A DNA stretch of 64,000 nucleotides from an uncultured Hellea sp. Lineage in GTDB: Bacteria > Pseudomonadota > Alphaproteobacteria > Caulobacterales > Maricaulaceae. Positions 48,050 to 64,000 of the stretch are shown here, in pieces. The notes under the pieces are model-generated. The model was not told where the DNA came from and did not search any database. It saw only the letters and a list, made by a program, of their open reading frames with translations. Location: positions 4,900-68,899 of the forward strand of contig CAJQGR010000008.1 of the NCBI GenBank assembly GCA_905477785.1, in the 5' to 3' direction. The position numbers and the translations under genes were made by a program. Position 1 is the stretch's first letter; each line of letters starts with the position of its first letter.

Positions 48050-48050
48050 T

Positions 48051-49088
48051 ATGAATATTCAAGAGCTAAATAGGATAGCATTAAAAATGGTCGAACCAGG
48101 AACAGGTATTCTTGCAGCGGACGAATCCACAGCAACCATTGGTAAAAGGTTTGAGAGCATTAATACTGAAAGTACCTATGAAAAAAGGCGCGATTGGCGA
48201 GAAATGTTATTTAGAACTCACGAGGCGATGAGCAATCATATATCAGGTGTTATATTGTATGATGAAACTATCCGCCAAAAAACTGCGGATGGAACATCTT
48301 TAGTTGAGTTAATAAAATCTACTAATACTCTACCAGGTATAAAGGTAGACACAGGAACAACACCACTAGCTGGTAGGCCACAAGAATCCATAACTCAAGG
48401 ACTTGATGGTCTTCGCGAACGTTTAACTGAATATTATAAGTTAGGTGCACGTTTTGCAAAATGGAGAGCTGTAATTGAGATTTCTCACCCAGATCAATAC
48501 GTAGGTACGACACCAACTATAGGCGGAATTAAAGCTAACACACATGCGCTTGGTCGTTATGCAGCCTTATGCCAAGAAGCTGGAATAGTTCCAATAGTTG
48601 AACCAGAAGTGCTCATGGGGGGTTATCATAATATTGAGCGCTGTCATGAAGTTACAGAGACCACATTAAATTCTCTTTTTACTGAACTATATGAACAAGG
48701 TGTCAAGTTAGAAGGTATAATATTGAAGCCGAATATGGTTGTTGCAGGAAAAAAGTGTGCTGAACAACCTAGTAGAGTAGAGATAGCGGAGCGCACCATT
48801 AAAGTCTTAAAAGATACAGTACCTGCTGCTGTTCCTGGAATCGCTTTTTTATCAGGTGGACAAAAGAATGAAGAGGCTACAAGAAATCTTGATATGATGA
48901 ATAAAATAGGTAGTTTCCCGTGGAGGCTTACATACTCATATGGGCGTGCTTTGCAGCAGTCAGCTTTATTTACATGGAAGGGTAAGAAAAGTAATTATAA
49001 AAAAGCTCAAGAAGCTTTTTATCACAGAGCTAAAATGAATAGCTTAGCTAGTATTGGAAAATGGAGTCAGGATTTAGATAAATTTTAA
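48051..49088 (+). CDS. Class I fructose-bisphosphate aldolase
   Basis: GILAADES, GIKVDTG, FAKWR, VPIVEPEV, LKPNMV (Schiff-base Lys), FLSGGQ, SYGRALQ. Confidence 0.96.
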   Translation: MNIQELNRIALKMVEPGTGILAADESTATIGKRFESINTESTYEKRRDWREMLFRTHEAMSNHISGVILYDETIRQKTADGTSLVELIKSTNTLPGIKVDTGTTPLAGRPQESITQGLDGLRERLTEYYKLGARFAKWRAVIEISHPDQYVGTTPTIGGIKANTHALGRYAALCQEAGIVPIVEPEVLMGGYHNIERCHEVTETTLNSLFTELYEQGVKLEGIILKPNMVVAGKKCAEQPSRVEIAERTIKVLKDTVPAAVPGIAFLSGGQKNEEATRNLDMMNKIGSFPWRLTYSYGRALQQSALFTWKGKKSNYKKAQEAFYHRAKMNSLASIGKWSQDLDKF

Positions 49089-49120
49089 ATGAACGATCGA
49101 TTTGTATATTCATTAAGAAG

Positions 49121-50911
49121 TTAATCCAAACTCAAGACAACTCCTTCACGCCTCGGGTCAGCACCACCAATCAATTTTCCGTCTTCAGCTCTATAGATAA
49201 TATGTATTCCGCTAAATTCACCTTTTGAACGACGAACTTTATGACCTTTACTTTCAAGTCCCTTTATTAAAGTCTCAGACATACCAAACTCTTCAGCAGG
49301 TGCGCCCCTATCAATCTCACCTGTAATGTCATCTTTTAAACCCTTAGCTTCGACTGCAATACGGCCATTTCGAGCAATAATGTTTGGTAACTCAATGGCA
49401 TCTTGCGGAGTTAAACCCCAATCAATTATCCCAACGATTGTTTTGGCTGTGTAAGCGATAATTGAACTGCCTCCTGGCGAGCCTGAAGTGAAGATGAACT
49501 CTCCTTTTGGATTAAAAACAATCACGGGCGCCATCGATGATCTAGGACGCTTATTTGGAGCAACGGCATTAGCAACTAGGAGACCATTGATGTCCCTTGG
49601 TTGAAATGAAAAATCAGTAAGCTGATTGTTTAAAATAAAACCTGCCGCCATTCGTTGTGAGCCAAACGCCGCTTCGACGGTTGTAGTCATAGAAACAACT
49701 AAACCCTCTTTATCTACAACTGTAAAATGAGATGTACTAGGGTTATCAGGGGTAGAGTCCTCACCTCTGCTAAATTTATTAGGGTTACCTGCCGTTACAT
49801 TTACCATTGCTACATCTCTGCGAATCAAATCGGATCGAGATTTTAAATATTCTTTATCAATCATAGATTCAGCATCCACTGCTATAAAATCGGGATCACC
49901 AATATATTTATCCCTATCGGCGTAAGCTAAAAAACTAGCCTCAGAAAAAATATGCCAGCCGTCCAATGACATACCTAATTTATTCATATCAAAATTTTCT
50001 AAAACACCCAAAATCGATTGAACAGCAACTGGGCCACTACTAGGGGGTTGGGCTCCACAAATAATATTAGACCTATAAGTCGAACAAAGTGCTTCAGTTT
50101 TTTTAGCTTTATAGTTTTTCATATCTTCAATTGTTAAGCTTCCAGGAAGTGGTAGCTTATGTGTTACACGCAAAATCTCTTGGGCTATAGGGCCTTCAAG
50201 AAGTGCTCTAGGATTCTTCTGGAGTGCTCGAAGAGTAACTGCATATTGTGGATTATCTCTTAAAAATCCAACAGGTAATGGCGTTATGCCGTCATCAAGA
50301 AAAAAATAATCTTTAGCATTTTCATCTCTATTTAAAGCAAACCCTCCCATTCGAGCTGTAATATCTGCCATACGCGGGCTTACTTTAAATCCATTTTCAG
50401 CCATCTTGATTGCTGGCTCCAATTGTACACCCCAATTAAGTAAGCCATAATCCTTATGCGCCATGTGCAACATAGTTATGACCCCAGGAACTCCTGTCGA
50501 TACTCCAGATGCAATACCGTTTCGATAGGGTATGGGTTTTTTTGTTTGCGGGTCCATGAACATTTCTGGACTAGCGGCACTTGGCGCTTTTTCTCTTCCA
50601 TTATAACTCCATACTTTGGCAGTTTTAGGATCATAAACTACCATAAAAGCACCTCCCCCAAGTCCTGAACTTTGTGGTTCAACAAGACCCAACATGGCTT
50701 GAATGGCTATAGCTGCATCAATTGCCGAGCCTCCTGCTTCGAGAATTTCTACACCTGCGCGGCTTGCAAGAGGGTTGGCAGCAGCCACCATTCCTTTTGA
50801 TTTAGGTACTGTATGTCTAACTTTTGCATTTATTATACTTGCCGATACAATCTCAGCATGCACTATAGAGATCAGAAATATAGACAGAATAAATGAAGTA
50901 ATTTGTTTCAT
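49121..50911 (-). CDS. ggt: Gamma-glutamyltransferase (periplasmic)
   Basis: Signal peptide from ATG 50911, EPQSSGLGGG, STSHFTVVD (Thr nucleophile), LNNQLTDF, RPRSSMAP, GSPGG, ADPRREG. The ORF-track extension to 51163 is antisense to the next gene and was discarded. Confidence 0.95.
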   Translation of the reverse strand: MKQITSFILSIFLISIVHAEIVSASIINAKVRHTVPKSKGMVAAANPLASRAGVEILEAGGSAIDAAIAIQAMLGLVEPQSSGLGGGAFMVVYDPKTAKVWSYNGREKAPSAASPEMFMDPQTKKPIPYRNGIASGVSTGVPGVITMLHMAHKDYGLLNWGVQLEPAIKMAENGFKVSPRMADITARMGGFALNRDENAKDYFFLDDGITPLPVGFLRDNPQYAVTLRALQKNPRALLEGPIAQEILRVTHKLPLPGSLTIEDMKNYKAKKTEALCSTYRSNIICGAQPPSSGPVAVQSILGVLENFDMNKLGMSLDGWHIFSEASFLAYADRDKYIGDPDFIAVDAESMIDKEYLKSRSDLIRRDVAMVNVTAGNPNKFSRGEDSTPDNPSTSHFTVVDKEGLVVSMTTTVEAAFGSQRMAAGFILNNQLTDFSFQPRDINGLLVANAVAPNKRPRSSMAPVIVFNPKGEFIFTSGSPGGSSIIAYTAKTIVGIIDWGLTPQDAIELPNIIARNGRIAVEAKGLKDDITGEIDRGAPAEEFGMSETLIKGLESKGHKVRRSKGEFSGIHIIYRAEDGKLIGGADPRREGVVLSLD

Positions 50912-50969
50912 AAATTTTGCTTTCTTTATTACACGATTAACATAGATGTGACTTACAAAAGAGCAAGTA

Positions 50970-51923
50970 ATGAACAATACAATATTAGATGTAAATGGCT
51001 TAAGTGTAGGACAAGCACATGATAATGAGGTTAAAACAGGTGTAACAGTAGTTTTACCTGACAAGCCAGTAATATGCTCCGTAGATGTTCGAGGGGGTGG
51101 TCCCGGAACACGTGAAACAGAAACCTTAAATGATGGAGGTCTAATTGATAAAGTCCATGCCATCTGTTTATCGGGAGGGTCAGTTTACGGTTTAGCTGCA
51201 GCTGATGGAGTATGTGCCTGGCTTGGTAAAAAGCGTATAGGTTATGAAGTGGGACCCAGCCCTATACCTGTTTCTCCTATAGTACCAAGTGCGATACTTT
51301 TTGACAATGCAAATGGGGGGAACAAAAATTGGGGCATCAATCCACCTTTTAGAAGTCTAGGTATAAGAGCATGCGAGTCAGTTTCTAATCATTTAACTCT
51401 TGGTAGGATAGGAGCTGGATATGGAGCCATGTCCGGAATTTATAATGGCGGAATAGGTAGTGCTTCAGAGGCAATTAACGAATTCACCGTTGGAGCTTTA
51501 ATAGCTGCTAATTCTGTTGGGTCACCCTTTATGCCCGGTACTAAATGTCCTTGGGCTTGGCCATATGAAGTTAACAATGAGTTTGGTGGTGAGCGACCCC
51601 CGAAAAATTATAAATATGCGCACCCACAAGATACAAAGTTAAATTTCTTGAACAGAGCTGGTCAAAACACAGTCATAGGTGTTGTGGCCATCGATGCTAA
51701 TTTAACGCAAAATCAATTAAAACGAATTGCGATTATGGCTCAAGATGGAATAGCTATGGCAGTACAGCCTAGCCATACACCACTTGATGGCGATACAATT
51801 TTTGCAGTATCAACTGGTCATAAATCTTGCGATAACCCAACGATATTATCAGAATTGGGATCTGCGGCTGCGCGATGCGTGGCAAGGTCTCTCACTCGGG
51901 CGGTATATGAGGGGTCTAAATGA
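50970..51923 (+). CDS. P1/S58 family (DmpA-like) peptidase
   Basis: TGVTV, DVRGGGPGTRET, LSGGSVYGLAAADG, ANSVG, AQDGIA..V.PSHT..DGDTIFA. Confidence 0.9.
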   Translation: MNNTILDVNGLSVGQAHDNEVKTGVTVVLPDKPVICSVDVRGGGPGTRETETLNDGGLIDKVHAICLSGGSVYGLAAADGVCAWLGKKRIGYEVGPSPIPVSPIVPSAILFDNANGGNKNWGINPPFRSLGIRACESVSNHLTLGRIGAGYGAMSGIYNGGIGSASEAINEFTVGALIAANSVGSPFMPGTKCPWAWPYEVNNEFGGERPPKNYKYAHPQDTKLNFLNRAGQNTVIGVVAIDANLTQNQLKRIAIMAQDGIAMAVQPSHTPLDGDTIFAVSTGHKSCDNPTILSELGSAAARCVARSLTRAVYEGSK

Positions 51924-52402
51924 TTGGCGATATCGAAGCACACCATCATATAAAAATTTTAAAAATGAATGAAAGATTTGTTCATTGGCTTGCACCACTC
52001 AATGATAAAAGCTTGGCAATTCTTTTGAATAAAGCAACTTATAAAAAACAAATAAATGATGGAGATGGAGTATTAATTGGTTTCTCAAACAATGCTGATT
52101 ATGACCACAAAAATCTTTCTTGGTTAAGAAATAAATATAAAAAATTTCTATATATAGACCGAGTTATTATTAACCCTAAGGCACATGGCAAAGGATTAGC
52201 AAAAAAACTATATAATGATTTCGAAAAAAAAGCTTTATTGATGAAGATACCGAGGCTTGTTTGTGAAGTGAATACTAATCCCAATAATGAGAATTCACAT
52301 AAGTTTCATATCAAGAACAGTTTTAAACCTATAGGGGATATGGACTATGAAGAATCTGGAATAAGTGTTCGTTACTATGAAAAATATCTTTTAAATAAAT
52401 AA
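51920..52402 (+). CDS. GNAT family N-acetyltransferase
   Basis: FLYIDRVII...HGKGLA..LY, CEVN..P.NE.SH.FH...F; 4-nt overlap with the peptidase gene. Confidence 0.88.
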   Translation: MIGDIEAHHHIKILKMNERFVHWLAPLNDKSLAILLNKATYKKQINDGDGVLIGFSNNADYDHKNLSWLRNKYKKFLYIDRVIINPKAHGKGLAKKLYNDFEKKALLMKIPRLVCEVNTNPNNENSHKFHIKNSFKPIGDMDYEESGISVRYYEKYLLNK

Positions 52403-52498
52403 CAAACTTATTTTATTAAATACCAAACTAAAAAAAGCTTGCTTTTATATCGAACAGACGCTTTAACGCCACGAACTTATAGATTATCTTTAGTTCAT

Positions 52499-52575
52499 GC
52501 ACCGGTAGCTCAGCTGGATAGAGTACCTGACTACGAATCAGGGGGTCGGGGGTTCGAATCCTCCCCGGTGCGCCA
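52499..52575 (+). tRNA. tRNA-Arg(ACG)
   Basis: Acceptor GCACCGG/CCGGTGC, anticodon arm CCTGA-CTACGAA-TCAGG, GTTCGAATC T-loop, encoded CCA. Confidence 0.97.
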
Positions 52576-52664
52576 CTTCTATAATATAAGATACTGATTA
52601 ATAAAGATAAATTTTATAGCTATCTATCCTTAAACTCTTGCAGCTTATCAATTCCAATCATACA

Positions 52665-53756
52665 TTACGCATGTCCCCATTCTTTTAGAATCTGATTGAC
52701 GTTCGTCGGGACAGAGTTTTTGCGGCTTGTCTTAGGGTTCTGGCTTTTAAACCTTGGTGCTGGTGCCGCCTCAATGTTCCCTTCTATCGTCTGGTAGATT
52801 TGACGGTGTTTTATGTGGGGGTGTTCTGCAGCTTCCCCAGGATGGAGAACGGGCGCGAAACAAACATCCGTACCTTCCATGAGAGCTGACCATTCGTCTC
52901 GGGATTTGGTTTTGAAAATCTGGGTCAGCCGGGATTTCTGAACTGGCCAATTACCAGTATTCATTTGGTCCCTGAAATCAGGGTCATCGGACAAGTCTAA
53001 ATGCTTTAGTAAGAGAGAATAAAATTTAGATTCTAGAGATCCAATCGAAATAAAACCTCCGCAAGAACAAACGTATGTGTCAAACCAGTGAGGCCCATCC
53101 AGAACGCTTTTACCACGCTCAAAACTCACGGCCCCTGTAGCCTTTAGAGATAGAATGAGGTTCATCATATGAGCAGAGCCATCTATCATCGCTGCATCAA
53201 CAATATCACCTTTACCCGTTCGCTGAGCCTGAAGAATGGCTCCGAGCATTCCAATCGTGAGATATAATGCGCCCCCTGCGATATCTCCGATTATCGTAGG
53301 TGTCGCAAAGGGTGGGTCCCCCGGCTTTCCTGAATACCAAAGAGCGCCCGATAAGGCATTGTAGTTGATGTCGTGACCTGCCGCATGCGCAAGAGGCCCA
53401 TCTTGGCCCCATCCTGTGACTCGGCCATAGGCTAGCTTGGGATTAATTTCGCAGCATATATCTGGGCCAAGCCCAAGCCGCTCCATAACTCCCGGGCGCA
53501 TACCTTCGATAAGACCATCAGCATGCTCTACAAGTTTGAGTAACCGCGTCTTATCGTCATTGTCTTTGAGGTTTAGCTTTATGATGCGTTTGCCGCGTTT
53601 CGTAATTGTAGTATTGCCGCTATCGCCGAATGCAGGTGCCCCGGGACGTTCAATAACTATGACATCTGCTCCTAAATCAGCGAGATGCATGCCGCAAAAG
53701 GGTGCAGGTCCAATCCCCTCAATCTCTATGATTTTTATGCCTGATAAAACTGTCAT
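52665..53756 (-). CDS. CaiB/BaiF family III CoA-transferase, alpha-methylacyl-CoA racemase-like
   Basis: EGIGPAPF..M.LADLGADVI, EGMRPGVMERLGLG, GWGQDGP, GHDINY, GDIAGG, APAPRF. Confidence 0.92.
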   Translation of the reverse strand: MTVLSGIKIIEIEGIGPAPFCGMHLADLGADVIVIERPGAPAFGDSGNTTITKRGKRIIKLNLKDNDDKTRLLKLVEHADGLIEGMRPGVMERLGLGPDICCEINPKLAYGRVTGWGQDGPLAHAAGHDINYNALSGALWYSGKPGDPPFATPTIIGDIAGGALYLTIGMLGAILQAQRTGKGDIVDAAMIDGSAHMMNLILSLKATGAVSFERGKSVLDGPHWFDTYVCSCGGFISIGSLESKFYSLLLKHLDLSDDPDFRDQMNTGNWPVQKSRLTQIFKTKSRDEWSALMEGTDVCFAPVLHPGEAAEHPHIKHRQIYQTIEGNIEAAPAPRFKSQNPKTSRKNSVPTNVNQILKEWGHA

Positions 53757-54181
53757 GATTTTTTCTTGAATTTTTTAACGGTGCCTGAGAAGTTTAAGCA
53801 GGGTCGACCTTCGGCCGTTACAATACCGCGAATGAATATCAGAGATCCGCCGGCTCGAATGACTTCGCCGCGAGCTTCGATCAGCTCTCCTATCACAGGC
53901 CCATCAATGAACTCGCAGTTAAAGGCGACTGTAACGCCGTAATTTCCGTCTATGTGATCATAACAAAGGGCAAATAGTGCGAAGTCAGCAAAGGCCATAA
54001 GGCAGCCACCATGCATCACGCCGCCCGCATTCATGTGTTTACGGGCTGCGCGAAATGCGGAAACGTAGCTATCCTTCTCTTTCCTGAAATAGAATGGACC
54101 AGCTGTTTCGAACTCGAAGACTTCTTCCTTCCAGCTTAACCACTGCTTAAATTCTCCTTCAGTCTCCATAAAAGGGGTCAT
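53753..54181 (-). CDS. PaaI family hot-dog thioesterase
   Basis: HMNAGGVMHGG.L...AD motif, 142 aa. Confidence 0.9.
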   Translation of the reverse strand: MTPFMETEGEFKQWLSWKEEVFEFETAGPFYFRKEKDSYVSAFRAARKHMNAGGVMHGGCLMAFADFALFALCYDHIDGNYGVTVAFNCEFIDGPVIGELIEARGEVIRAGGSLIFIRGIVTAEGRPCLNFSGTVKKFKKKS

Positions 54182-57100
54182 GCAGAGGCCTTCGTCGTAG
54201 TTTTTTCCTGATAGGCAGACAGCAGCATATTCAAGTTCGTTGTCGCGTCCTTGACGCTCTTCTCTTTGATAAAGCCATAGCCGCGAATGGCATCAGGGAA
54301 TGAGGCGATATCTATTGCGAGCTTATGATTGTCTTGGTTTAGACCAAGAATAAGACTATCGACAGTTTCTTCATATGTTTTAATCAAGCCGCGTTCCATC
54401 TTCCGTTCTTCGGTATATCCGAAAATATCAAAAGCAGTGCCGCGCAAAGCACTCATCTTCGCCATAATTTTAAATATAGGCGTAATCCAGCCGCCGATTT
54501 CATACTTGCGGGGCTGACCCGTATGTGGGTCTTTCTTAGCTAAAAGGGGCGGAGAAAGATGATACTTGATTTTATATTTGCCCTCAAATGCCTCTTGGAG
54601 TTTGGCTCTGAACTCTGGCGCGGTCTGCAAACGGGCGACCTCATATTCATCCTTATAGGCCATTAGCTTATAGGCATATATTGCGACGGCGCGGGTTAGC
54701 CCGCTTAGGCCTTTTGTTTTTTGAGCCTCCGCTAAAGCCGCTTTCTCAACAAGGGCTTTATATCTGTCGGCATAAGCTGCATTTTGGTAAAGGGTTAAGT
54801 CTTGCATTCGGGCGGCGGTATATTCGTCATCTGTTTTAGGGGTTAAGGGTTTATCATTCAAAAAGGCCTTAATTGCTTGCGGGTCATGAGCCGCGAGGCG
54901 GCCCCATTCAAAGGCCTGTTTATTCCATTCAGGTTTCACCCCGTTAAGGTCAACCGCCTTGAAGATAGAGGCCCGTCCAATAGGCAGCGCGCCCTTTTGC
55001 CAAGCATACCCGACCAAAAAGAGGTTTGCACCAATGGAATTACCAAGAAGTTTTACCGCCAATTGCGTGGCGTCCAGATATTCAATGTTATCAGCGGACA
55101 GAACTGAGGAAAATCTGTTTTGAAGGGCCGTCATAGGATAATCGAGATTAGGGTCGTGAATAAAGTCACTCGACATTGTTTTTTCAAGATTAATGAAGGC
55201 TTTTGTTCTACGGGAATTTAATGTTTCTAAAACCTTGTCCATGCCTGTTGTCATCATATCGCAAGCAATTAACAAGTCCGTTGCACCAATCGTCAGTCTG
55301 GCCGTATTTATATCAGACTGCTCGTTGGCAAAACGTATATGGGTCATGACCGGGCCGCCTTTTTGTGAGAAGCCCATCTGATCAACGATCGACACACCTT
55401 TACCTTCCATGTGAGCCGCCGTACCCAGAAGCGCCCCAATCGTAATCACGCCTGTTCCGCCGACGCCTGCGATCAAGGCTCCATAGGTTTTAGATTTTTC
55501 TATTTTATAGATTTCGGGTTCCGGGATTACAGTTTTAAGACTGTCTCGCGCCTTACCACGTTTCATGTCCCCGCCGTGTATTGTCACAAAACTTGGACAA
55601 AATCCGTCAACGCAAGAATAGTCTTTATTGCAGGATGATTGGTGTATTTTTCTTTTCCGACCATACTCGGTATCGATTGGTTGAACTGAAAGACAATTGG
55701 ACTTTTTGGAACAATCTCCACAGCCTTCGCAGATGCGGTCATTGATGAAAGCGCGTTTAGCTGGATCCGGAAAAGTGCCACGTTTGCGACGTCTGCGTTT
55801 CTCCGCTGCACAAGTCTGGTCGTATATTAGAACTGTTGTCCCTTTGATATCGCGGAGTTCTCTCTGTACTTTATCCAGCTCTCGGCGATGGTGGATAGTT
55901 GTGCCTTTAGCAAAGCCAGCATTATTTCCATATTTATCTGGCTCGTCAGTGACGACGACTATGCGTTTCACTCCTTCTTGAAACACTTGATGTGTAATCA
56001 TGGGAACTGTTAGCTGCCCATCAACGGGTTGCCCGCCGGTCATGGCCACGGCGTCATTAAACAATATTTTGAAGGTAATATTTGACTTGGCTGCTATCGT
56101 TGCACGAATAGCTAAAGACCCACTATGGAAATATGTTCCATCTCCAAGCTGTTGAAAGACATGATTAGTCTCAACGAATGGTTCTTCACCAATCCACGGC
56201 GCGCCTTCAGCGCCCATATGTGTGAAGCCCTCGACATCGCGATCCATCCAAGTCGCCATGTAATGACACCCGACGCCACCAACACCCTTGCTGCCTTCTG
56301 GCACTTTCGTAGACGTGTTATGGGGGCAGCCAGAACAAAAATATGGAACGCGCCTTGTATTAATCGCATCGGCCTTGGCGAGTGTTTTTTCGCAATCATC
56401 CAGAAATTTGAGACGCTCATCAATAGATGGGCTTGTATAAAAATAAGCAATTCGGTCCGCGATAATCTTTGCGATACGGTCAGGCGTTGTTCGTTCGTAC
56501 GCAATTACAAGAGGCTTACCGTTTTCGTCCGTTCGTCCCACAATGCGCGGCCGCTTGCTTTTGGGTAAATCATAACATCCGCGCGTAAATCCGTTTTGAA
56601 TTTGTTCTCGTTTGTCTTCAATAATCAATACTTCATCCATGCCCTCGGCAAAGGTGCGATAAAGGTCGTCATCAGACGGAAACGGCATCGCGACTTTAAG
56701 AATGTTGATACCCAGTGATTTTGCCTTGGCTTCCGAAATACCAAGATCATGTAAAGCCTGTTGGACATTTCGCCATTCTTTGCCCATGGCGACAATGCCA
56801 AATTTTTTCTTTGGGCTTTCAAGTGTTACGCGATTTAGGTTATTTGCTCTTGCAAAGGCTAAAGCTGCAGGAAGTTTATATTTGCGTGCTCTCTTCCCCA
56901 TTCCGTAAATGTCATCACCCCGCCTTGCGTTAACCCCGTCAGGCGGAAATACAAATTTGGGATATTTAATTTTAATGCGATTATAATCACCATTGATTGA
57001 CGCCGCAGTTTCAATGGTTTCCGGTAATAATTTATATCCCACAAAGGACCCGCAAAAACGCGATAACGCAATGCCGTAGATTCCTAGATCGAATACGTCT

Positions 57101-57645
57101 TGGATATCCGCCGGATACAATACCGGCATGAGGAGGTCTTCGAATAAGAGCTCAGAATGATAAGGATCAACAGTGGACGTCATATCTGGGTCATCACCGC
57201 ACAGCACGAGTACGCCGCCATGCTTAGCAGACCCATGTAATGTCGCTTGACGTAATCCGTCTATCGTTTGATCCAGCCCTGGGCCTTTGCCATACCACAT
57301 GGCATAAACACCGTCATATTTCGCATCGCCTTTATAACCAACTTGCTGTGTCCCCCAGACAGAGGTCATAGCAAGGTTTTCATTTAGCCCTGGCCAAAAT
57401 TTAACGTGATGCTCTCCAAGAATAGCATTTCCAGCACGCCAGAGTTCTACATCAATCGCGGTCATAGGCGAACCCCGGTATCCGGAGATGAAACCACCTG
57501 TATTAAGACCTGCTTTCTCATCTATAAGTCGCTGCACAAGCATTAGCCTGACGATGGCTTGTTGACCAGTCACGTACACGCGGCCGCTATCCAGACGATA
57601 CTTATCGTCAAGCGTCATATTGGGAAGCTTTAGAGGCGCGTTCAT
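54178..57645 (-). CDS. Indolepyruvate ferredoxin oxidoreductase family protein (IorA-IorB fusion)
   Basis: GFISGYRGSP, FCSGCPHN, GVGCHYM, GDGTYFHSG (TPP), CEGCGDC ferredoxin motif, GVGGTGV, AYKDEYEVARL. Confidence 0.95.
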   Translation of the reverse strand: MNAPLKLPNMTLDDKYRLDSGRVYVTGQQAIVRLMLVQRLIDEKAGLNTGGFISGYRGSPMTAIDVELWRAGNAILGEHHVKFWPGLNENLAMTSVWGTQQVGYKGDAKYDGVYAMWYGKGPGLDQTIDGLRQATLHGSAKHGGVLVLCGDDPDMTSTVDPYHSELLFEDLLMPVLYPADIQDVFDLGIYGIALSRFCGSFVGYKLLPETIETAASINGDYNRIKIKYPKFVFPPDGVNARRGDDIYGMGKRARKYKLPAALAFARANNLNRVTLESPKKKFGIVAMGKEWRNVQQALHDLGISEAKAKSLGINILKVAMPFPSDDDLYRTFAEGMDEVLIIEDKREQIQNGFTRGCYDLPKSKRPRIVGRTDENGKPLVIAYERTTPDRIAKIIADRIAYFYTSPSIDERLKFLDDCEKTLAKADAINTRRVPYFCSGCPHNTSTKVPEGSKGVGGVGCHYMATWMDRDVEGFTHMGAEGAPWIGEEPFVETNHVFQQLGDGTYFHSGSLAIRATIAAKSNITFKILFNDAVAMTGGQPVDGQLTVPMITHQVFQEGVKRIVVVTDEPDKYGNNAGFAKGTTIHHRRELDKVQRELRDIKGTTVLIYDQTCAAEKRRRRKRGTFPDPAKRAFINDRICEGCGDCSKKSNCLSVQPIDTEYGRKRKIHQSSCNKDYSCVDGFCPSFVTIHGGDMKRGKARDSLKTVIPEPEIYKIEKSKTYGALIAGVGGTGVITIGALLGTAAHMEGKGVSIVDQMGFSQKGGPVMTHIRFANEQSDINTARLTIGATDLLIACDMMTTGMDKVLETLNSRRTKAFINLEKTMSSDFIHDPNLDYPMTALQNRFSSVLSADNIEYLDATQLAVKLLGNSIGANLFLVGYAWQKGALPIGRASIFKAVDLNGVKPEWNKQAFEWGRLAAHDPQAIKAFLNDKPLTPKTDDEYTAARMQDLTLYQNAAYADRYKALVEKAALAEAQKTKGLSGLTRAVAIYAYKLMAYKDEYEVARLQTAPEFRAKLQEAFEGKYKIKYHLSPPLLAKKDPHTGQPRKYEIGGWITPIFKIMAKMSALRGTAFDIFGYTEERKMERGLIKTYEETVDSLILGLNQDNHKLAIDIASFPDAIRGYGFIKEKSVKDATTNLNMLLSAYQEKTTTKASA

Positions 57646-58799
57646 TGGCTGACTTTTTCGATATGTTTGGAGGTTAGCTGCTTAACAGAGGTCACGCCCA
57701 TAAGACCCATTCCTCGCTCCACTTCAGCTCTCAATAGGTCAACAATCCTAGTCACTCCCGCTTCACCACCAACGGCTAGTCCGTAAATATAGGGTCTTGA
57801 AAATGAGACAGCATCGGCGCCTAGCGCCAAGGCTTTAATCATATGAGACCCTCGGCGGATACCTGAGTCCATAATAATTTCAATGTCGTTTCCGACCGCT
57901 TGACGGATTGGGGCAATGCGGTGGATTGCCGGGGAAGAACTATCTAGCTGGCGGCCACCATGGTTGGAAACAATGATAGCTGTAGCGCCCATTTTGAAAG
58001 CCTTCTTTGCATCTCCCACCGATTGTATGCCCTTAATAGCAAAGGGGCCTCCCCATTCTTTAGCAAGCCACTCTGCGTCCTTCCAGGTAACGGTCTTGTC
58101 CATCAAATGGTGGGCAAGCTCAAAGGTATTCATACCGCCGCCAAGAGCGTCCATACGGTGAGAAATATTTGCCATCTCAAATTTACCTGAGGTCAAAAAA
58201 CCTAAAGCCCATCTTGGATGAAGCGCAAAGTCCGGTAATGTGGATAATTTAAGCCTCGGCGGAAAACTTAGCCCGCTTCTGAGGTCGCGTTCTCGATTGC
58301 CTGAAATCGAACTGTCCACTGTGAGGCATAATGCATCATATCCAGCTTCTTTCGACCAAGCCACATGATCGCGCGTAATTTCCCTATCTTTTACGATATA
58401 AGACTGAAACATTTTGGGCCCACTCGAAGATGCGCCGACGGCTTTAATGCCTTGGGTAGAAAAGGTTGAAAGCCCATAGATGATGCCCGCTTTAGCAGCA
58501 GCTTTGGCGACAGCTATTTCTTTGTCGGGGTGAAACAAACCTGAACCACCGCTGGGAGAGAGATAAAAGGGGAGCTTCATATCAACACCCAAAACATTTA
58601 CGCTCATGTCAATATTGCTGACATCCACTAAAACATCAGGAATGAGATTATATTGATCGAAGGCCGTGAGATTATTGCGCAGAGCCGTTTCGTCGTCAGA
58701 GCCACCAGCCATGTAATCGTAAATAGCACGCGGTAGCAGGCGTTTAGCGGCCTGTTTGAAGTCTTCGACATTGTGGAGTTTATTTAGATTCATTTTCAT
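57642..58799 (-). CDS. FMN-dependent alpha-hydroxy acid oxidase/dehydrogenase
   Basis: YDYMAGG, TVD...GNRERD, IKG, SNHGGRQLD, DSGIRRG, ALALGA. Confidence 0.95.
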   Translation of the reverse strand: MKMNLNKLHNVEDFKQAAKRLLPRAIYDYMAGGSDDETALRNNLTAFDQYNLIPDVLVDVSNIDMSVNVLGVDMKLPFYLSPSGGSGLFHPDKEIAVAKAAAKAGIIYGLSTFSTQGIKAVGASSSGPKMFQSYIVKDREITRDHVAWSKEAGYDALCLTVDSSISGNRERDLRSGLSFPPRLKLSTLPDFALHPRWALGFLTSGKFEMANISHRMDALGGGMNTFELAHHLMDKTVTWKDAEWLAKEWGGPFAIKGIQSVGDAKKAFKMGATAIIVSNHGGRQLDSSSPAIHRIAPIRQAVGNDIEIIMDSGIRRGSHMIKALALGADAVSFSRPYIYGLAVGGEAGVTRIVDLLRAEVERGMGLMGVTSVKQLTSKHIEKVSQ

Positions 58800-58801
58800 A
58801 C

Positions 58802-59950
58802 CTAGAACGCTGAAATGCCAGTTAAAGCTCTGCCTATAATAAGTTTTTGAATTTCAGTTGTACCCTCTGTGAAGGGGAACACACGAACGGCGCGGTTTAA
58901 ATATTCAACCAGATATTCACGTATGATCCCGCTCGCGCCATGAATTTGAACGGCATCATATACGACTTCACAGGCCAGTTCGGTTCCATACCACTTCGTC
59001 ATTGCAACATGTACTTGGTCAGGTGCTCCGCGGTCGATCTGGTCCAGGGCTTTAAGGGCCATCAACTTGCCAGCTTCGATCTTGGTGGCCATTGTTGCCA
59101 ATTTATCTTGAATCATCTGTTTGCCCGCAATAGGGCCGCCAAACTGTTTGCGATCTTTAGCAAATGATAAGGCTTCATCGAGTGCGGCTTGGGCAATGCC
59201 AAGCGCCATCATTGTCACAATCGGACGAGACATAGCTAACGTCCCAAGCATAGATTTCATGGCGTTGGGAGCGGACACGACAACATTTTCTGCAGGCACT
59301 TTAACGTCATTAAAAAACACCTGAGCGGTCGACTGAGAATTGAGCGCAGTCTTCTCTAAATCTTTTGTTTGATAGCCGTGATTGCGCTCTACGAGAATGA
59401 GGCCGAGCCCTTGATCTGAACTGCCATCAGAAAAGTTGGCGAGTACAAATATGAAATCAGAATACCCTCCGCTGGAATTCCAAGTTTTTTCGCCGTTTAG
59501 GATGTAATTATCGCCGTCTTTCTTAGCCCTTAATTTCACCCCCGCCATATCTGATCCGCCGTCAGGCTCCGAGAGGCCAACGCTCGCGGCAGTATTGCAA
59601 TCCATCAAATCCCTTTGATATTTAGCCTTGAGGTGCTTGGGGGCTGCTGACATTAATTTGGTAGTGATTCCGTATATCTGTGTTGTTACAGCTATGTCGG
59701 GCGAAACTCGCGCCAGTTCATGCATTAAAAGGCCATAGGTGACCTGATCCAAATCCATCCCTCCATCGCTTTCGGACACCATGCCATTCACTACTCCAAA
59801 AGGGATCAGGCGTTTTTGGATGTCCAAAGCCATATCTTTAGGAATGAACTTATCACGATACTCATCAGCAATTGGCCGGATATCACTCTCTAAAAAGCGT
59901 TTGAATCCTTCCAACAATATCACTTGCTCTTCATTTAAAGAAAAATCCAT
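58802..59950 (-). CDS. Acyl-CoA dehydrogenase family protein
   Basis: MDFSLNEEQ, LSEPDGGSD, NGEKTW.S, R.QFG.PI...Q.IQ, QIHGASG, TEGTTEIQ. Confidence 0.95.
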   Translation of the reverse strand: MDFSLNEEQVILLEGFKRFLESDIRPIADEYRDKFIPKDMALDIQKRLIPFGVVNGMVSESDGGMDLDQVTYGLLMHELARVSPDIAVTTQIYGITTKLMSAAPKHLKAKYQRDLMDCNTAASVGLSEPDGGSDMAGVKLRAKKDGDNYILNGEKTWNSSGGYSDFIFVLANFSDGSSDQGLGLILVERNHGYQTKDLEKTALNSQSTAQVFFNDVKVPAENVVVSAPNAMKSMLGTLAMSRPIVTMMALGIAQAALDEALSFAKDRKQFGGPIAGKQMIQDKLATMATKIEAGKLMALKALDQIDRGAPDQVHVAMTKWYGTELACEVVYDAVQIHGASGIIREYLVEYLNRAVRVFPFTEGTTEIQKLIIGRALTGISAF

Positions 59951-60146
59951 AACGTCCTCTTACTTCAATCATTCATACATTTGACTGGGTGGTTTTGCTT
60001 GGTCAATTTTGGCAAAAACAAAGTCACCTTGATATAGAATTTATCCGACAACTAGGTTCATCGATTGTAGCAAATTTAATATTGCGCATAACACAACCCT
60101 GAGAAGACGTTTCATTAACCTCAGTTTGAATAGATTTGAAACGAGA

Positions 60147-61427
60147 TCAGTCAATGAGCTTGTCGCCTGAACCAAGAACGAGATAGCAAACTCCACCAAT
60201 CACGCTAATTATTGCTGTTACGATGAATACATTTTCATAGGATCCGGTTTGCTGAACAATATAACCAGCGGCAATCGCCCCTATTGCGCCAGCAGCGGTT
60301 CCAAAGGTGTTAAGTGTTCCATAGATAATATCGGCAAAACGCGGCGCAATATCCAGACTATTTGGAACTAGGCCTGCATAAGCGAAAGCTAATATCCCTA
60401 AGGCCGCGCACATCAAGATTGTTGCAGATTTTGCGCTTTCAGCATCTCTCAGAAAGTACATAAATATTGCAGAGCCTAATAAGCCAAAGCCAATTAAAAT
60501 TTTTCGTGTTTTTGTCGCGCTAATGCCAGTTTTCAGCATGTAATCTGCAACCCAGCCGGTCACATTCATCATGAGAAACATGACAATCCAAGGCAGCACT
60601 GCATATATCCCTGCCCCAGCGAGGTCGAGCTTATGTACATCGGAGAAGTAACTGGGAAGCCAGGATAGAAAAATATACAGCGTCCATGAAGCCGCAAAGC
60701 CTGTAATGCAAAGTGCCCAAACAGGCTTTGCTAAGAAGATTTCCTTCCAGGGGATAACTTTAGCTTTTTCTTTTACACCGCCCCCAGCCGCGATAATTGT
60801 TCTTTCATAGCTCGTAATCGATGGATGCTGATCCGGGTGTTCCTTTATCAAAAAATACCAAAAGATTGCCCAAATGAATCCCAAAGCTCCAAAGGCGTAA
60901 AAAATCATTTCCCAGCCATAAGTCGTTACAATCTTGGGGCCTAACAAAAGTGCGCCAACGGTTCCGAGAATCGTTCCAGAAGAAAGAAAGCTCATAACTC
61001 GAGATTGCTCTGTCTGAGGGAACCAACGTCCAACTACCGTAAAAGAAGACGGAGCTAGGCCAGCTTCACCAACACCCATCAGGAATCGTACGGCCAGTAA
61101 AGCGGGAATGGACATGAATGCCGCTATTGGCGTTATTAATGTGAAGACTGACCAAAAAACGACGGCCCAGCCAAGAACAAGTTTACCTCCAAATCGATTG
61201 GCGAGATAACCACCGCCAATTTGCATGCACAAATAACCCCAAAAAAAGAAGCTAAAGACATACCCTTTATCAACATCAGACCAGCCAAATTCCTTTTGCA
61301 TGCTGATGGCGGCAATCGAAATGTTTACGCGGTCAAGGTAGCAAATGACGAATGCAAAAAATGCTAAAACCAATACCGTCATACGTTTTGGCCAGAACGG
61401 CTTTTGCGTGTTTATTTCCGCTCCCAT
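60147..61427 (-). CDS. MFS transporter, anion:cation symporter (ACS/SLC17-like) family
   Basis: ICYLDRVNISIA, GGYLANRFGGK, RFLMGVGEA, RWFP..E, WLPSYF. ATG 61427 has an AAGGGG RBS; the ORF-track extension to 61775 overlaps the divergent gene. Confidence 0.92.
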   Translation of the reverse strand: MGAEINTQKPFWPKRMTVLVLAFFAFVICYLDRVNISIAAISMQKEFGWSDVDKGYVFSFFFWGYLCMQIGGGYLANRFGGKLVLGWAVVFWSVFTLITPIAAFMSIPALLAVRFLMGVGEAGLAPSSFTVVGRWFPQTEQSRVMSFLSSGTILGTVGALLLGPKIVTTYGWEMIFYAFGALGFIWAIFWYFLIKEHPDQHPSITSYERTIIAAGGGVKEKAKVIPWKEIFLAKPVWALCITGFAASWTLYIFLSWLPSYFSDVHKLDLAGAGIYAVLPWIVMFLMMNVTGWVADYMLKTGISATKTRKILIGFGLLGSAIFMYFLRDAESAKSATILMCAALGILAFAYAGLVPNSLDIAPRFADIIYGTLNTFGTAAGAIGAIAAGYIVQQTGSYENVFIVTAIISVIGGVCYLVLGSGDKLID

Positions 61428-61574
61428 AAATTCCCCTTTTTGCGCTACTCTATTAGAGCACGCTTCTGAAAGCTTATCAAATTGGGCACTTATACTGTCT
61501 GCGAGGCCTAATTCTCTAATATAGAATTGACAATTGCAGCTTGACGGCTCTTTTAAGACAAGTAGAGAATTTAT

Positions 61575-62663
61575 ATGTACAATGCCAAGCCTAATTTTAG
61601 CGATGATTATCAAGAGTCGCGCGCCAAGTTTCTTGCCGCGATGAGCAAACGAGGCGAGGTGATTTCCATTCGGCATCCTAAAAAAGGTCCGGACGGTCAA
61701 GACCTCTATCTCGATTTTGGTATAATTGGTCCGGACGACGCCCGAGGCGCGCTTATTTTGATTAGTGGCACTCACGGTCCTGAAATATTTGCTGGCTCAG
61801 GCCCACAAGCAGCACTCCTAAATTCAGGGCTAATCAATGATTATGCGGATCTCCGCGTTATTCTGGTCCACGCTCATAACCCTTATGGTTGTGCGTGGTT
61901 GCGGCGCACAGACCACAACAATATTGACCTTAATCGTAATTATTACGATTTCTCCAAACCCTTCATCCCGCATCCTGGCTATGACGTGTTGCGTCCGGTC
62001 ATGGTGCCCACTGAGTGGGATTCAGTCGCACTCGGTAAGGGCTTGGCGGATTATGAGGCCCAACATGGTAAGGTTGGATTGCTTGCCGCCATGGTCACGG
62101 GCCAAAGCCACGATCCGGATGGAATGTTTTTCCGTGGCGAGGGCCCGGCTTGGTCGCACATTCAAATGAAAGATGTGCTACCGAAACTAACAAAAACGCA
62201 AGACATTGTTAGCGTCATAGATTTCCATACTGGGCTAGGTCCTTATGGTGTACCCTATATGGTACACGGATACGAACCTGGCTCGTCGGAATTCATCGCG
62301 TTTAAAAAAGCCTACGAGGGGGAAGTTCGTTCGACCATGGACCCGGCGGATATTGACGAGGATCTCCCCGGCTCCCCCGAAGGCCCCATTGTCTTGGGAA
62401 TGAAGGCCTTGCTGCCCGGAAAACAGAGTTACGCTGTAGTCATCGAATACGGCACAGTACCACCGGAACAGGTCTTTGGTACACTGATGCATGACAATTG
62501 GATGCATGCCCACGGCACGCCGGGGACCGACGAATGGAACGCGGTGAAACAGAATGTGCGAGAAGTTTTTTATCCGCGTGAGGATAAGTGGAAAGACATG
62601 ATCTGGGAGCGGGCCGTCTGGGCCGTTGAGCGCTCGGCAAAACTGGCGCGCGGCGAATTTTAA
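61575..62663 (+). CDS. DUF2817 / M14-like zinc metallohydrolase
   Basis: SGTHGPE (HxxE), HNPYG...RR, NIDLNRNY, IDFHTGLG, IEYGT. Confidence 0.85.
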   Translation: MYNAKPNFSDDYQESRAKFLAAMSKRGEVISIRHPKKGPDGQDLYLDFGIIGPDDARGALILISGTHGPEIFAGSGPQAALLNSGLINDYADLRVILVHAHNPYGCAWLRRTDHNNIDLNRNYYDFSKPFIPHPGYDVLRPVMVPTEWDSVALGKGLADYEAQHGKVGLLAAMVTGQSHDPDGMFFRGEGPAWSHIQMKDVLPKLTKTQDIVSVIDFHTGLGPYGVPYMVHGYEPGSSEFIAFKKAYEGEVRSTMDPADIDEDLPGSPEGPIVLGMKALLPGKQSYAVVIEYGTVPPEQVFGTLMHDNWMHAHGTPGTDEWNAVKQNVREVFYPREDKWKDMIWERAVWAVERSAKLARGEF

Positions 62664-62714
62664 TATATAATCGCCGTATTAGTCGGCCAGGCAGGTGTCC
62701 TGTCAATTCACCCC

Positions 62715-63836
62715 TTAACTGCGCATTCTTTTACCCTTGGGATCAAAAAACGAATAACCTTTTAAGACCTCGGCTCCGACAATTCCGTCTTCGGTCTTTA
62801 TGCGAACTTTCCCGTCTGTGATCAGATTTTTGTGGTTCTTAGCAAAGGAAATCCCAATAGTTTTATCCAATATGTGACTGTAGTGCACAGACGGCATTTT
62901 TCCGACTTCTTCGTCGCCGGCCATCATTATTCCGGCAGGCGAAATGGCACACTTTCCTTGGGTTTGAAAGCGCACAAGCCGTCTCTCTGGCGTATTGTTT
63001 TCAAGGGCCTTTAAGGCATCTTCGCCGACAAACCCTGTGTGACCGCGGTCCCAGGTAAAACTCATTCCGGCTTCGAATAAATTGGCTGTCCCATCAATAT
63101 CATGGCCGGGAATGATATGACCTTTTTCCAGACGTAATACTGACATACCCATGATAGCGGTGGGTTTTGCGCCGTAAAGTTCGCCCGCACCGCGGAGTTT
63201 GTTCCAAATTTTCACGGCCTCACCTGATGGAACGTGGAGTTCAAATCCTAATTCACCCAAGAATCCGATCCGCAAGACCCGGCAGGGAACATTCGCGATG
63301 TCCATGTCTTTGATACGCATAAAGCGAAAGGCATCTTTGGAAATATCGCCCTCGGTGATGGCGCTTAGAATTTCCCGAGCTTTTGGCCCGGCTAGATTGA
63401 TAGCGGCAAAGTCATGAGATTGGTCCGCGATTTGGTAATCGAAGCCGGCCTCGCTACAGTGTTTTGTGATCCAGTCTTGGAAGGTTGCACTACGGCCCGT
63501 ACTTGTCATCAGATAAAATTCGTTGTCTGATCGGCGGCTGACCACGCCGTCGTCGATGCCGCAGCCATTTTCGTCAAGAAGGACAAAGTGCGTGACATGG
63601 CCAGGTTTCAGATCCTCCACACTTTTGGGGATGACACGCCCAATCGCTTTGGCCGCGTCTTTACCGGTAATGGAAAACTTCCCAAAACTTGAGCTGTCCA
63701 TAATAATGGCGCTTTCGTGAGCTGTGGCGGCTTCCATTTCTGGATCGCCGAAAATAGCAATGCGTTCCCATTCTCCAAATGTTGCGGCAATGCCGCCAGC
63801 TTCCAACTGAATGTCGTGTAAAGGTGTTCGTTTCAT
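62715..63836 (-). CDS. Stand-alone aminomethyltransferase (GcvT-like) protein
   Basis: MKRTPLH, D.SSFGKF.ITG.DA, DDGVV.R...NEFYLMT, AINLAGPKAR, RIGFLGELGFELH, LRLEKGH, FFDPKG.R. Start moved to ATG 63836. Confidence 0.88.
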   Translation of the reverse strand: MKRTPLHDIQLEAGGIAATFGEWERIAIFGDPEMEAATAHESAIIMDSSSFGKFSITGKDAAKAIGRVIPKSVEDLKPGHVTHFVLLDENGCGIDDGVVSRRSDNEFYLMTSTGRSATFQDWITKHCSEAGFDYQIADQSHDFAAINLAGPKAREILSAITEGDISKDAFRFMRIKDMDIANVPCRVLRIGFLGELGFELHVPSGEAVKIWNKLRGAGELYGAKPTAIMGMSVLRLEKGHIIPGHDIDGTANLFEAGMSFTWDRGHTGFVGEDALKALENNTPERRLVRFQTQGKCAISPAGIMMAGDEEVGKMPSVHYSHILDKTIGISFAKNHKNLITDGKVRIKTEDGIVGAEVLKGYSFFDPKGKRMRS

Positions 63837-64000
63837 GACGGGTTCAATTCCTTTTCCAGTGAATAGGTCCTTTCTTTTAAGTCGATCAGCATTCAAGATA
63901 GAAAATCTCGCGATTGAATAAAACTCATAACGTAAAGATAAGTATTCAATTCGAAGAATTCTCATATCTGGGGTCACAACAAAGGGATGAAATATGAGCG

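Follow-up and report, generated by a model that had tools for sequence, protein, structure and literature searches.

What is catabolised by five tightly packed genes that bring together an acyl-CoA dehydrogenase (ACAD), a flavin mononucleotide (FMN)-dependent 2-hydroxy-acid enzyme, a fused indolepyruvate ferredoxin oxidoreductase-type protein (Ior), a thioesterase and a racemase? The genes are located at positions 52665-59950 of a 64,000-nucleotide stretch from an uncultured Hellea sp. (assembly GCA_905477785.1, contig CAJQGR010000008.1, positions 4,900 to 68,899 of the forward strand), which is referred to as the window throughout. The host metagenome-assembled genome (MAG) is 1.83 Mb in size and 97% complete, with a guanine-cytosine (GC) content of 37% (mean 0.370). 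A preliminary description of the window had read the genes as a translationally coupled operon leading from a 2-hydroxy acid to an enoyl-CoA, with 2-hydroxy-3-methylvalerate or 4-methylthio-2-hydroxybutyrate as the possible substrates. According to our analysis, the operon has about an even chance of being a mobile, self-contained module for the catabolism of 2-hydroxy (and 2-oxo) carboxylic acids with a 3-methyl branch. Isoleucine-type acids such as 2-hydroxy-3-methylvalerate are suggested as the leading substrate candidates. The enzyme families are all known; new are the gene combination, the proposed use of a fused Ior in place of a branched-chain 2-oxo acid dehydrogenase complex (BCKDH), and the conserved regulon architecture. 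Literature searches within the searchable library gave no paper describing this gene set, in agreement with the preliminary description, whose author had not recognised it as a known pathway. The operon genes are the following, in the order of transcription:

58802-59950, minus strand: ACAD gene, 382 aa, first gene of the operon
57642-58799, minus strand: FMN enzyme gene, 385 aa
54178-57645, minus strand: fused IorA-IorB-family gene, 1155 aa
53753-54181, minus strand: hotdog thioesterase gene, 142 aa
52665-53756, minus strand: CaiB-fold racemase gene, 363 aa, last gene of the operon

The ACAD and FMN enzyme genes are joined as TAG-gt-ATG (2-nt gap), and the remaining three junctions are ATGA stop/start overlaps of 4 nt. 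The five-gene layout described earlier was thus borne out by the list of open reading frames (ORFs), the junction sequences, and the Pfam and NCBIfam matches. No alternative upstream starts were found for any of the five genes, and a Shine-Dalgarno sequence (AAGAGGA) was located 5' of the ACAD gene. The orthologues of the FMN enzyme were called 2 codons shorter (383 aa), and with that start the first gap would be 8 nt. The order of reactions proposed earlier (from a 2-hydroxy acid via the 2-oxo acid and the acyl-CoA to the enoyl-CoA) is compatible with the enzyme families.

The conservation of the set was followed with the FMN enzyme, the homologues of which separate into a small group (57% identity or more) and a large, more distant cloud (at most 55%). 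The threshold of at least 57% identity defined ten lineages: the window lineage (with L034-L037), L004, L124, L001, L038, L125, L005, L009, L123, and L006. The following genes were found adjacent to the FMN enzyme gene:

ACAD, 10/10 lineages
Racemase, 9/10 lineages (missing in L125)
MFS (major facilitator superfamily) transporter, 9/10 lineages
Ior, 8/10 lineages (missing in L009; the L123 contig ends)
DUF2817 gene, 8/10 lineages
Thioesterase, 3/10 lineages (the window lineage, L004, and L124 only)

The core is therefore formed by the ACAD, the FMN dehydrogenase, and the racemase, together with the MFS transporter and DUF2817; Ior is frequent, and the thioesterase is accessory. Since the set recurs in ten independent lineages, the arrangement is no chance juxtaposition, and the parallel drop in the identities of the partner proteins indicates that the unit has been inherited together. 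Co-conservation of all five genes, as expected from the preliminary description, was seen for the ACAD, FMN enzyme and racemase core; it did not hold for the thioesterase as a fixed member, and Ior is missing from at least one lineage. At 92 loci with FMN enzyme homologues of at most 54% identity, the full set was never found, and Ior was nearby at one (L068). Homologues of at most 50% identity, obtained from a generic-pattern metagenome scan (orthologue alignment), were used as a negative control. At L068:3924-11149, a metagenome contig with 63% GC, a 42% identical Ior is divergent from a 259-aa gene, an MFS gene, and a 47% identical FMN_dh gene, with an IS91-type transposase and an integrase as neighbours; here, the link between FMN_dh and Ior recurs independently and between distant homologues.

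The racemase restricts the possible chemistry. The protein, with 363 aa of racemase-like length (about 360 aa), matched PF02515 (CoA_transf_3) with 254.8 bits (residues 4-346). When compared to PDB sequences with phmmer, it aligned over the full length to the Mycobacterium tuberculosis alpha-methylacyl-CoA racemase MCR (1x74/8rmw; 298 bits, E 1e-87) and matched FAR with 278 bits, whereas the best CoA-transferase was YfdE with 120 bits, followed by Frc (at most 95). The GHDINY and GDIAGG motifs and the Glu of LESKFY are identical to the aligned MCR residues, the catalytic His126/Asp127, Asp156, and Glu241 (M. tuberculosis numbering). The CaiB-fold protein is thus assigned as an alpha-methylacyl-CoA racemase of the MCR/AMACR type on the family III CoA-transferase fold, and what had been noted earlier as a racemase-like protein can be called a true MCR-type racemase. 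Its identity and catalytic residues together demand an alpha-methyl (or alpha-aryl) acyl-CoA. The earlier suggestion of an alpha-methyl-branched, isoleucine-type acyl-CoA is hereby supported. The genome encodes a further, native MCR-type racemase on contig C78:8300-9430, which shares 39% identity with the operon protein and retains GHDINY and GDYGGG.

The FMN enzyme matched PF01070 (FMN_dh) over its full length (425 bits, residues 18-381) and is encoded by the sole FMN_dh gene in the genome. Its best full-length PDB relative is (S)-mandelate dehydrogenase (254 bits). The alignment to the full-length mandelate dehydrogenase 6bfg is gap-free over query residues 177-215, whereas alignments of glycolate oxidase (GOX) to the FMN enzyme need a deletion of about 21 residues at the extra loop, a segment of roughly 20 residues in loop 4, which is the membrane anchor of MdlB. 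The enzyme retains the equivalents of the catalytic GOX residues Tyr24, Tyr129, Arg164, His254, and Arg257, none of which varies among 20 orthologues; the GOX Trp108 position is Phe in the FMN enzyme and Ala in MdlB. Because of the MdlB-type extra loop, the protein is placed in the dehydrogenase subtype rather than among the oxidases, and it is predicted to be a membrane-associated MdlB/LldD-type (S)-2-hydroxy-acid dehydrogenase, the electrons of which would probably go to the quinone pool. The oxidase of the preliminary description was corrected accordingly. The FMN enzyme differs from those of mandelate and lactate operons in its surroundings: fold, catalytic residues, and membrane-loop segment are shared with MdlB and LldD, but here the enzyme sits with an ACAD, a racemase, and Ior.

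The enzyme could also be a plain L-lactate/glycolate dehydrogenase beside a pyruvate-type Ior, the linkage to ACAD and racemase being mere island packaging. The nearest NCBIfam model is indeed the L-lactate dehydrogenase subfamily PRK11197, and no second FMN_dh gene is available in the genome. However, the scores are below both LldD cut-offs (PRK11197, 302.6 vs 376 bits; NF033901, 262.7 vs 550), and the linkage to ACAD and racemase is kept over the ten lineages down to 57% identity, with overlapping stop/starts and a common upstream element (see below), while homologues with 54% identity or less have unrelated neighbourhoods. The lactate/glycolate assignment is very improbable on these grounds.

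Ior exceeded the cut-off of the fused indolepyruvate ferredoxin oxidoreductase family (NF009589/NF009588) with 1488.6 bits to NF009589 (cut-off 816; residues 7-1152). The Pfam domains are POR, DUF6537 (C-terminal), and TPP_enzyme_C, and the translation contains a GDG...N thiamine pyrophosphate (TPP) motif and the Cys clusters CEGCGDC...C and C...C...CP. The predicted reaction of this TPP and Fe-S enzyme is the conversion of a 2-oxo acid and CoA to an acyl-CoA and CO2. The archaeal-type equivalogs were not reached (TIGR03336 for IorA, 106.7 vs 650.9 bits; IorB models, at most 69.8 vs 205-348), and the name indolepyruvate is therefore uninformative on the substrate. No PDB relative of the fused Ior was found by sequence, and no biochemical characterisation of the fused family was found in the literature. 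A native Ior paralogue (79% identical) is encoded on contig C51:92-4854 with a native GC of 0.39. Together with the native racemase on C78, this means that the island carrying the operon duplicates both host functions.

The closest experimental precedent is Ior1 of Phaeobacter, an Ior homologue that converts phenylpyruvate to phenylacetyl-CoA (PMC5577590; PMC7497051); its aerobic use is supported by genetic and labelling data (PMC5577590). This precedent favours an aromatic route, in which a phenyllactate- or mandelate-type acid would be oxidised to an arylpyruvate or arylglyoxylate and turned by Ior into arylacetyl-CoA or aroyl-CoA, with the PaaI-like thioesterase in its paa-pathway role and 2-arylpropionyl-CoA as the substrate of the racemase. 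The mandelate dehydrogenase match of the FMN enzyme, the PaaI/THEM2-like thioesterase, and PaaA/C-like genes on the same island fit such a route, as does the use of 2-arylpropionyl-CoA by MCR enzymes (according to the depositor's name for 1x74). Lineage L124 additionally carries a gene of the Asp_Glu_race family, to which arylmalonate decarboxylases belong. Yet arylacetyl-CoA would leave the ACAD (10/10 lineages) and the racemase (9/10) without a role, and the similarity to MdlB is mostly the common membrane loop. The thioesterase matched the 4HBT hotdog family (PF03061), its best PDB match was Caulobacter 2hbo, and its HGG...D motif aligned with that of THEM2, but it failed the PaaI equivalog (TIGR02286, 24.3 bits vs a cut-off of 118.9) and is present in 3/10 lineages only. 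Of its earlier naming as a PaaI thioesterase, the PaaI/THEM2-like hotdog fold stands, and the PaaI equivalog assignment does not; the protein is classed as a hotdog acyl-CoA thioesterase and as an accessory member of the operon. No true paa cluster was found in the genome, where a PaaA-like protein scoring 88 bits against a cut-off of 280 is not accompanied by any other paa gene. The aromatic route is rated as distinctly unlikely.

Which 2-oxo acid is decarboxylated by Ior is suggested by what the host lacks. The only E1 components found in the genome are PdhA (in PdhA-PdhB-PdhC-Lpd) and SucA, and the host is thus without BCKDH. It has an IVD-like ACAD that adjoins a pair of acyl-CoA carboxylase beta and alpha subunits (host genes on contigs C19 and C57). 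Among 31 relatives, grouped by a heuristic classing of E1 alpha, the fused Ior was present in 9/11 genomes without a BCKDH-type E1 alpha vs 2/20 with one (Fisher p = 1.3e-4); under a stricter classing, the numbers were 5/6 vs 6/25 (p = 0.013). This anticorrelation suggests that Ior acts on branched-chain 2-oxo acids in these bacteria. A 3-methyl-2-oxo acid would yield the alpha-substituted acyl-CoA that the racemase needs. If this is true, the large and structurally uncharacterised fused Ior family would be a BCKDH substitute in aerobic marine bacteria, and the anticorrelation makes the idea directly testable.

The ACAD carries all four ACAD Pfam domains (N, middle, and C included), and its translation reads ...PFTEGTTEIQK, in which the Glu of TEGT presumably corresponds to the MCAD Glu376 position. 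No NCBIfam equivalog cut-off was reached (top score 222 bits vs 640), and the PDB scores were 206 bits for the generic MCAD-like 1ukw, 160 for IVD, 142 for SBCAD, and 133 for IBD. The paralogues in the same genome are at most 33% identical, and a class-wide sample of 400 genomes, with only four candidates scored in each, yielded no orthologue. The protein belongs to a divergent, cluster-specific subfamily. The top NCBIfam match was acryloyl-CoA reductase AcrC; as the model scores higher on the ordinary ACADs of the host (321-380 bits), this match is uninformative and was rejected. A route from propionate through acryloyl-CoA, lactoyl-CoA, and lactate to pyruvate was rejected as well: MaoC-type hydratases add water to C3, not C2. 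Pantothenate or pantoate as the substrate was ruled out, for the ACAD cannot dehydrogenate 2,2-dimethyl products.

The second of the earlier candidates, 4-methylthio-2-hydroxybutyrate, would be converted through its 2-oxo acid to methylthiopropionyl-CoA and enter dimethylsulfoniopropionate demethylation by a DmdC-like ACAD. The organism is marine, a GcvT-fold gene is located nearby (62715-63977), and the chemistry of the first three steps is formally possible. Methylthiopropionyl-CoA, however, lacks an alpha-methyl centre and would leave the near-universal racemase idle. The GcvT-fold protein scored 95.5 bits against the DmdA cut-off of 410, and none of the orthologous loci that were examined outside the window has its gene. 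Moreover, the ACAD of 382 aa lacks the extra C-terminal domain (Acyl-CoA_dh_C) that DmdC-type proteins carry. This candidate is consequently disfavoured, and we consider it extremely improbable. An ACAD of 588 aa with Acyl-CoA_dh_C is encoded at L068, beyond the integrase.

Substrate entry and regulation were examined in the region upstream of the operon, where the following features were located:

60147-61427, minus strand: MFS transporter gene, anion:cation symporter type, 426 aa (MFS_1, 189 bits; TIGR00893/00894 subfamily matches)
61575-62663, plus strand: DUF2817 gene (PF10994, 283 bits), divergent from the MFS gene
59999-60016, minus strand: 18-nt element before the ACAD gene (TTTGCCAAAATTGACCAA), 48 nt 5' of the ACAD start codon
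61473-61490, minus strand: 18-nt element before the MFS gene (AGTGCCCAATTTGATAAG), 45 nt 5' of the MFS start, between the divergent MFS and DUF2817 genes

The mechanically called MFS ORF begins with GTG, extends to 61775 (542 aa), and overlaps the DUF2817 gene. Since the MFS orthologues are 426 aa long, the true start is taken to be the ATG at 61427 and the GTG ORF to be over-extended; the divergent MFS/DUF2817 promoter region then has a length of 147 nt. The transporter is a probable substrate importer with its own promoter. In DUF2817, the residues H67-x-x-E70, N120-R121-N122, H218, and E291 are invariant in 8 orthologues. The AF2 model (pLDDT 75.4, pTM 0.82) gave carboxypeptidases A/T as the best Foldseek matches (probability 1.0, TM 0.40-0.46). 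Judged from these residues and the model, DUF2817 is a cytoplasmic M14-like zinc carboxypeptidase or deacylase with the full M14 set of zinc and catalytic residues. It could act upstream of the other enzymes, cleaving an imported conjugate to release a residue whose carboxylate is free. A second DUF2817 paralogue, 37% identical to the first copy, is located at C8:68893-69978; the two paralogues flank the stand-alone GcvT-fold gene.

Both 18-nt copies are oriented along transcription, and their core, TGCCNRDWWTGAY, occurs in the window twice, before the ACAD and MFS genes only. For scans, position weight matrices were trained leaving out the scanned lineage, and the sites before the MFS and ACAD genes were the top two of the whole locus in 7/8 lineages. 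The two sites of the window are the top two in the 64 kb and come second and third in the whole genome (1.83 Mb). Seven further lineages carry the element at the corresponding positions. In L006, a locus that was not used for training, the best matches were found 5' of a separate YjgF-Ior operon and of a TetR gene. With the same element before the MFS gene and the operon, these are taken to form one regulon with two promoters, and the element is probably bound by the AraC-type or TetR regulator of the island. A 10-mer common to both promoter regions (AATTCTATAT) was unconserved in orthologous loci, and the TGCC...TGAY element was preferred. Promoter and terminator consensus scans gave fewer matches than shuffled sequences and were left unused.

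For the branched-chain module, the following route is proposed, in which all steps are derived from family membership. The acid would be imported by the MFS symporter, or it would arrive as a conjugate and be cleaved by the M14-like DUF2817 hydrolase. Oxidation of the (S)-2-hydroxy acid by the membrane-associated FMN dehydrogenase would yield the 2-oxo acid, and the fused Ior, replacing the missing BCKDH of the host, would decarboxylate this oxidatively to the 2-methylacyl-CoA that is shorter by one carbon. The (2R)- and (2S)-2-methylacyl-CoA would be interconverted by the MCR-type racemase, since the configuration at C3 of the keto acid is proposed to be mixed or labile. The ACAD would then produce 2-methyl-enoyl-CoA, to be taken through beta-oxidation by the neighbouring MaoC hydratases and other enzymes, and the hotdog thioesterase, where present, would serve in CoA recycling or proof-reading. 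Genes that accompany the cluster in other lineages may widen the entry: RidA-like YjgF, DAO, and M19 dipeptidase would feed the 2-oxo acid from amino-acid-type precursors, and CoA ligases would give a second entry into the same acyl-CoA hub. These additional genes were found as follows:

CoA ligases, in L005, L009, L123, and L125
RidA-like YjgF adjoining Ior, in L005 and L006
DAO and M19 dipeptidase, in L038
NMO-like genes, in L004 and L006
Asp/Glu/hydantoin-racemase-family gene (230 aa), at L124:1848-2540, with a CoA ligase and the island's second ACAD as neighbours

The proposed route shares its intermediates (branched 2-oxo acid, 2-methylacyl-CoA, and 2-methyl-enoyl-CoA) with the catabolism of isoleucine and other branched-chain amino acids by BCKDH followed by a short/branched-chain ACAD, and for the downstream part the host keeps the IVD-like ACAD beside the carboxylase pair. 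Unlike in that pathway, decarboxylation would be by a fused ferredoxin-type Ior instead of a lipoamide complex, entry would be as a 2-hydroxy acid by the FMN dehydrogenase, the racemase is dedicated, and the ACAD is no orthologue of SBCAD or IBD. A similar net logic is known from the peroxisomal alpha-oxidation of phytanic acid, in which a 3-methyl acid loses one carbon via a 2-hydroxy intermediate to give a 2-methylacyl-CoA, with AMACR acting before beta-oxidation. In mammals, HAO2 acts on 2-hydroxyphytanate, followed by AMACR, so that the FMN_dh and MCR families occur in both systems; in the main mammalian route, 2-hydroxyacyl-CoA is cleaved by the TPP lyase HACL1 to an aldehyde and formyl-CoA. 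The operon differs in that its 2-oxoacid:ferredoxin oxidoreductase would turn a free 2-oxo acid into a CoA ester, and no PhyH-type hydroxylase is present. If the proposed route is true, it would be a bacterial counterpart of the peroxisomal logic of taking one carbon off and then racemising. Of the racemase relatives M. tuberculosis MCR (Rv1143) and FAR, MCR matches over the full length with conserved catalytic His/Asp/Glu; it is stand-alone and tied to the catabolism of cholesterol and branched lipids, whereas the operon racemase is translationally coupled to an entry module for 2-hydroxy and 2-oxo acids. As to Ior, the archaeal IorAB and VOR and Ior1 of Phaeobacter gallaeciensis/inhibens are likewise TPP/Fe-S decarboxylases that convert amino-acid-derived 2-oxo acids to acyl-CoAs. 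The archaeal enzymes consist of two subunits, while the operon Ior is fused, and Ior1, from an aerobic marine alphaproteobacterium, is documented for phenylpyruvate (PMC5577590).

The operon lies on a tRNA-associated, horizontally acquired island, which had been overlooked in the preliminary description. The borders in the window are the following:

52499-52575, plus strand: tRNA-Arg(ACG) (ARAGORN), left boundary of the high-GC island
52576-64000, unstranded: part of the island in the window; the block is at least 23.4 kb in all and reaches the contig end (C8:57398-80884)

Right where the tRNA gene ends (3' side), GC rises abruptly from about 0.37-0.40 to 0.45-0.50; inside the block, it is 42-51%, mostly 45-50%. 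Genomes of the same genus (46-48% GC) retain the left flank and the tRNA-Arg, with unrelated genes beyond the tRNA. The FMN gene was found in 1/301 genomes of the order; it is missing from the closest, equally small relatives (G304, G309, and G312), and a search of genome contigs with the FMN enzyme gave a single locus, in Hellea sp. MAG-168. The nearest relatives of the island genes are on contigs with 46-54% GC, some of them from a Hellea sp. and from a Henriciella sp. MAG. Nowhere in the assembly was the 3' end of the tRNA found again as a direct repeat (att), the far border of the island being past the contig end, and no integrase was found among the island ORFs examined. The same signals could be produced if the contig were a chimera, with sequences from two related populations joined at the conserved tRNA-Arg, and the block would then be foreign to this genome: the step falls exactly at the tRNA, the congeners have a GC content like that of the block, and neither integrase nor att repeat was seen. 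Two Logan contigs (L034 and L037) break within the tRNA gene, as such a join would also allow. On the other side, L035 comes from an independent assembly of another sample with k = 141, which exceeds the 77 nt of the tRNA. It runs collinear with window positions 48000-62624 at 99.0% identity across the junction, which makes a chimeric join hardly credible. If the module is real, it would represent a catabolic regulon that carries its own copies of generally useful enzymes and moves among related marine bacteria of differing GC.

Further genes of the island leave room for a larger substrate. They were identified as follows:

Elsewhere on the island: second DUF2817, second ACAD, MaoC hydratases, second MFS, and AraC and TetR regulators
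C8:75530-80703, outside the window: PaaA-like, PaaD-like FeS_assembly_P, PaaC-like, and [2Fe-2S] ferredoxin genes, with thiolase-like (Thiolase_C_1), DUF35/ChsH2-type OB-fold, and MaoC-like genes

The second group looks like an uncharacterised set for acyl-CoA oxygenation and side-chain cleavage, and it also adjoins the L006 cluster; its PaaA-like protein is the one that failed the PaaA cut-off. Given these genes, the operon could serve the alpha-oxidation of longer 3-methyl-branched isoprenoid (phytanate-like) acids to a pristanoyl-CoA-like 2-methylacyl-CoA, which would be racemised and beta-oxidised. In that case, the PaaA/C-like di-iron oxygenase encoded on the island could make a 2-hydroxyacyl-CoA, which the thioesterase could hydrolyse to the 2-hydroxy acid. 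The chemical logic would be the same as for the shorter acids, and the racemase and the ACAD fit it, as does the mammalian succession of HAO2 and AMACR. The thiolase-like/DUF35/MaoC set, the two ACADs, the CoA ligases, and the NMO-like genes are as in the degradation of sterol and isoprenoid side chains, and TonB-dependent receptors adjoin the cluster in L004 and L005. Nevertheless, the conserved MFS protein is an anion:cation symporter, a type typical for small hydrophilic anions, and the conserved partner DUF2817 is a carboxypeptidase-like hydrolase. The accessory genes (RidA-like, DAO, M19, and GcvT) are of an amino-acid type, and the core has no conserved 2-hydroxylase partner, as PaaA/C-like genes were found only in the window island and L006. 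Long isoprenoid acids are therefore judged an unlikely substrate class.

Several observations weigh against short branched-chain acids as the substrates, and they are partly the same ones. The steroid/isoprenoid-style side-chain genes of the island (thiolase-like, DUF35, MaoC, and NMO-like) and its PaaA/C-like di-iron oxygenase suit a longer or aryl substrate, and the sole experimentally supported Ior homologue in an aerobe uses phenylpyruvate. The ACAD, as judged from its scores, is not close to SBCAD or IBD and hence gives no information on chain length. The anticorrelation of BCKDH and Ior was obtained with a heuristic E1 alpha classing and with lineages that are not fully independent. Finally, Ior is missing from the L009 cluster and the racemase from that of L125, and CoA ligases are superfluous if Ior provides the thioester.

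For the branched-chain module, a broader physiological role can also be considered, although it is quite doubtful: the regulon may serve in the salvage of non-standard branched-chain residues (alpha-hydroxy, D-, and N-methyl analogues of Ile and Val) of marine peptides and depsipeptides. A small conjugate would be brought in by the MFS transporter, and DUF2817 would free the C-terminal hydroxy or amino acid. With the M19 dipeptidase, DAO, GcvT-type demethylase, and RidA-like proteins, the inputs would converge on the 3-methyl-2-oxo acid, which an oxygen-tolerant fused Ior, as a general BCKDH replacement in streamlined marine Alphaproteobacteria, would convert to 2-methylacyl-CoA. The racemase would correct the "allo" stereochemistry ahead of dehydrogenation. 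If the branched-chain assignment is true, a first physiological context would be given for the rare ACAD subfamily, the FMN dehydrogenase clade, and DUF2817. As a minor observation, YeiH-type PF03601 transporter genes were found as extra genes in the clusters of L001 and L005; on contig C51, such a gene is located 5' of the native Ior gene, with glyoxalase-like and Rieske oxygenase genes 3' of it.

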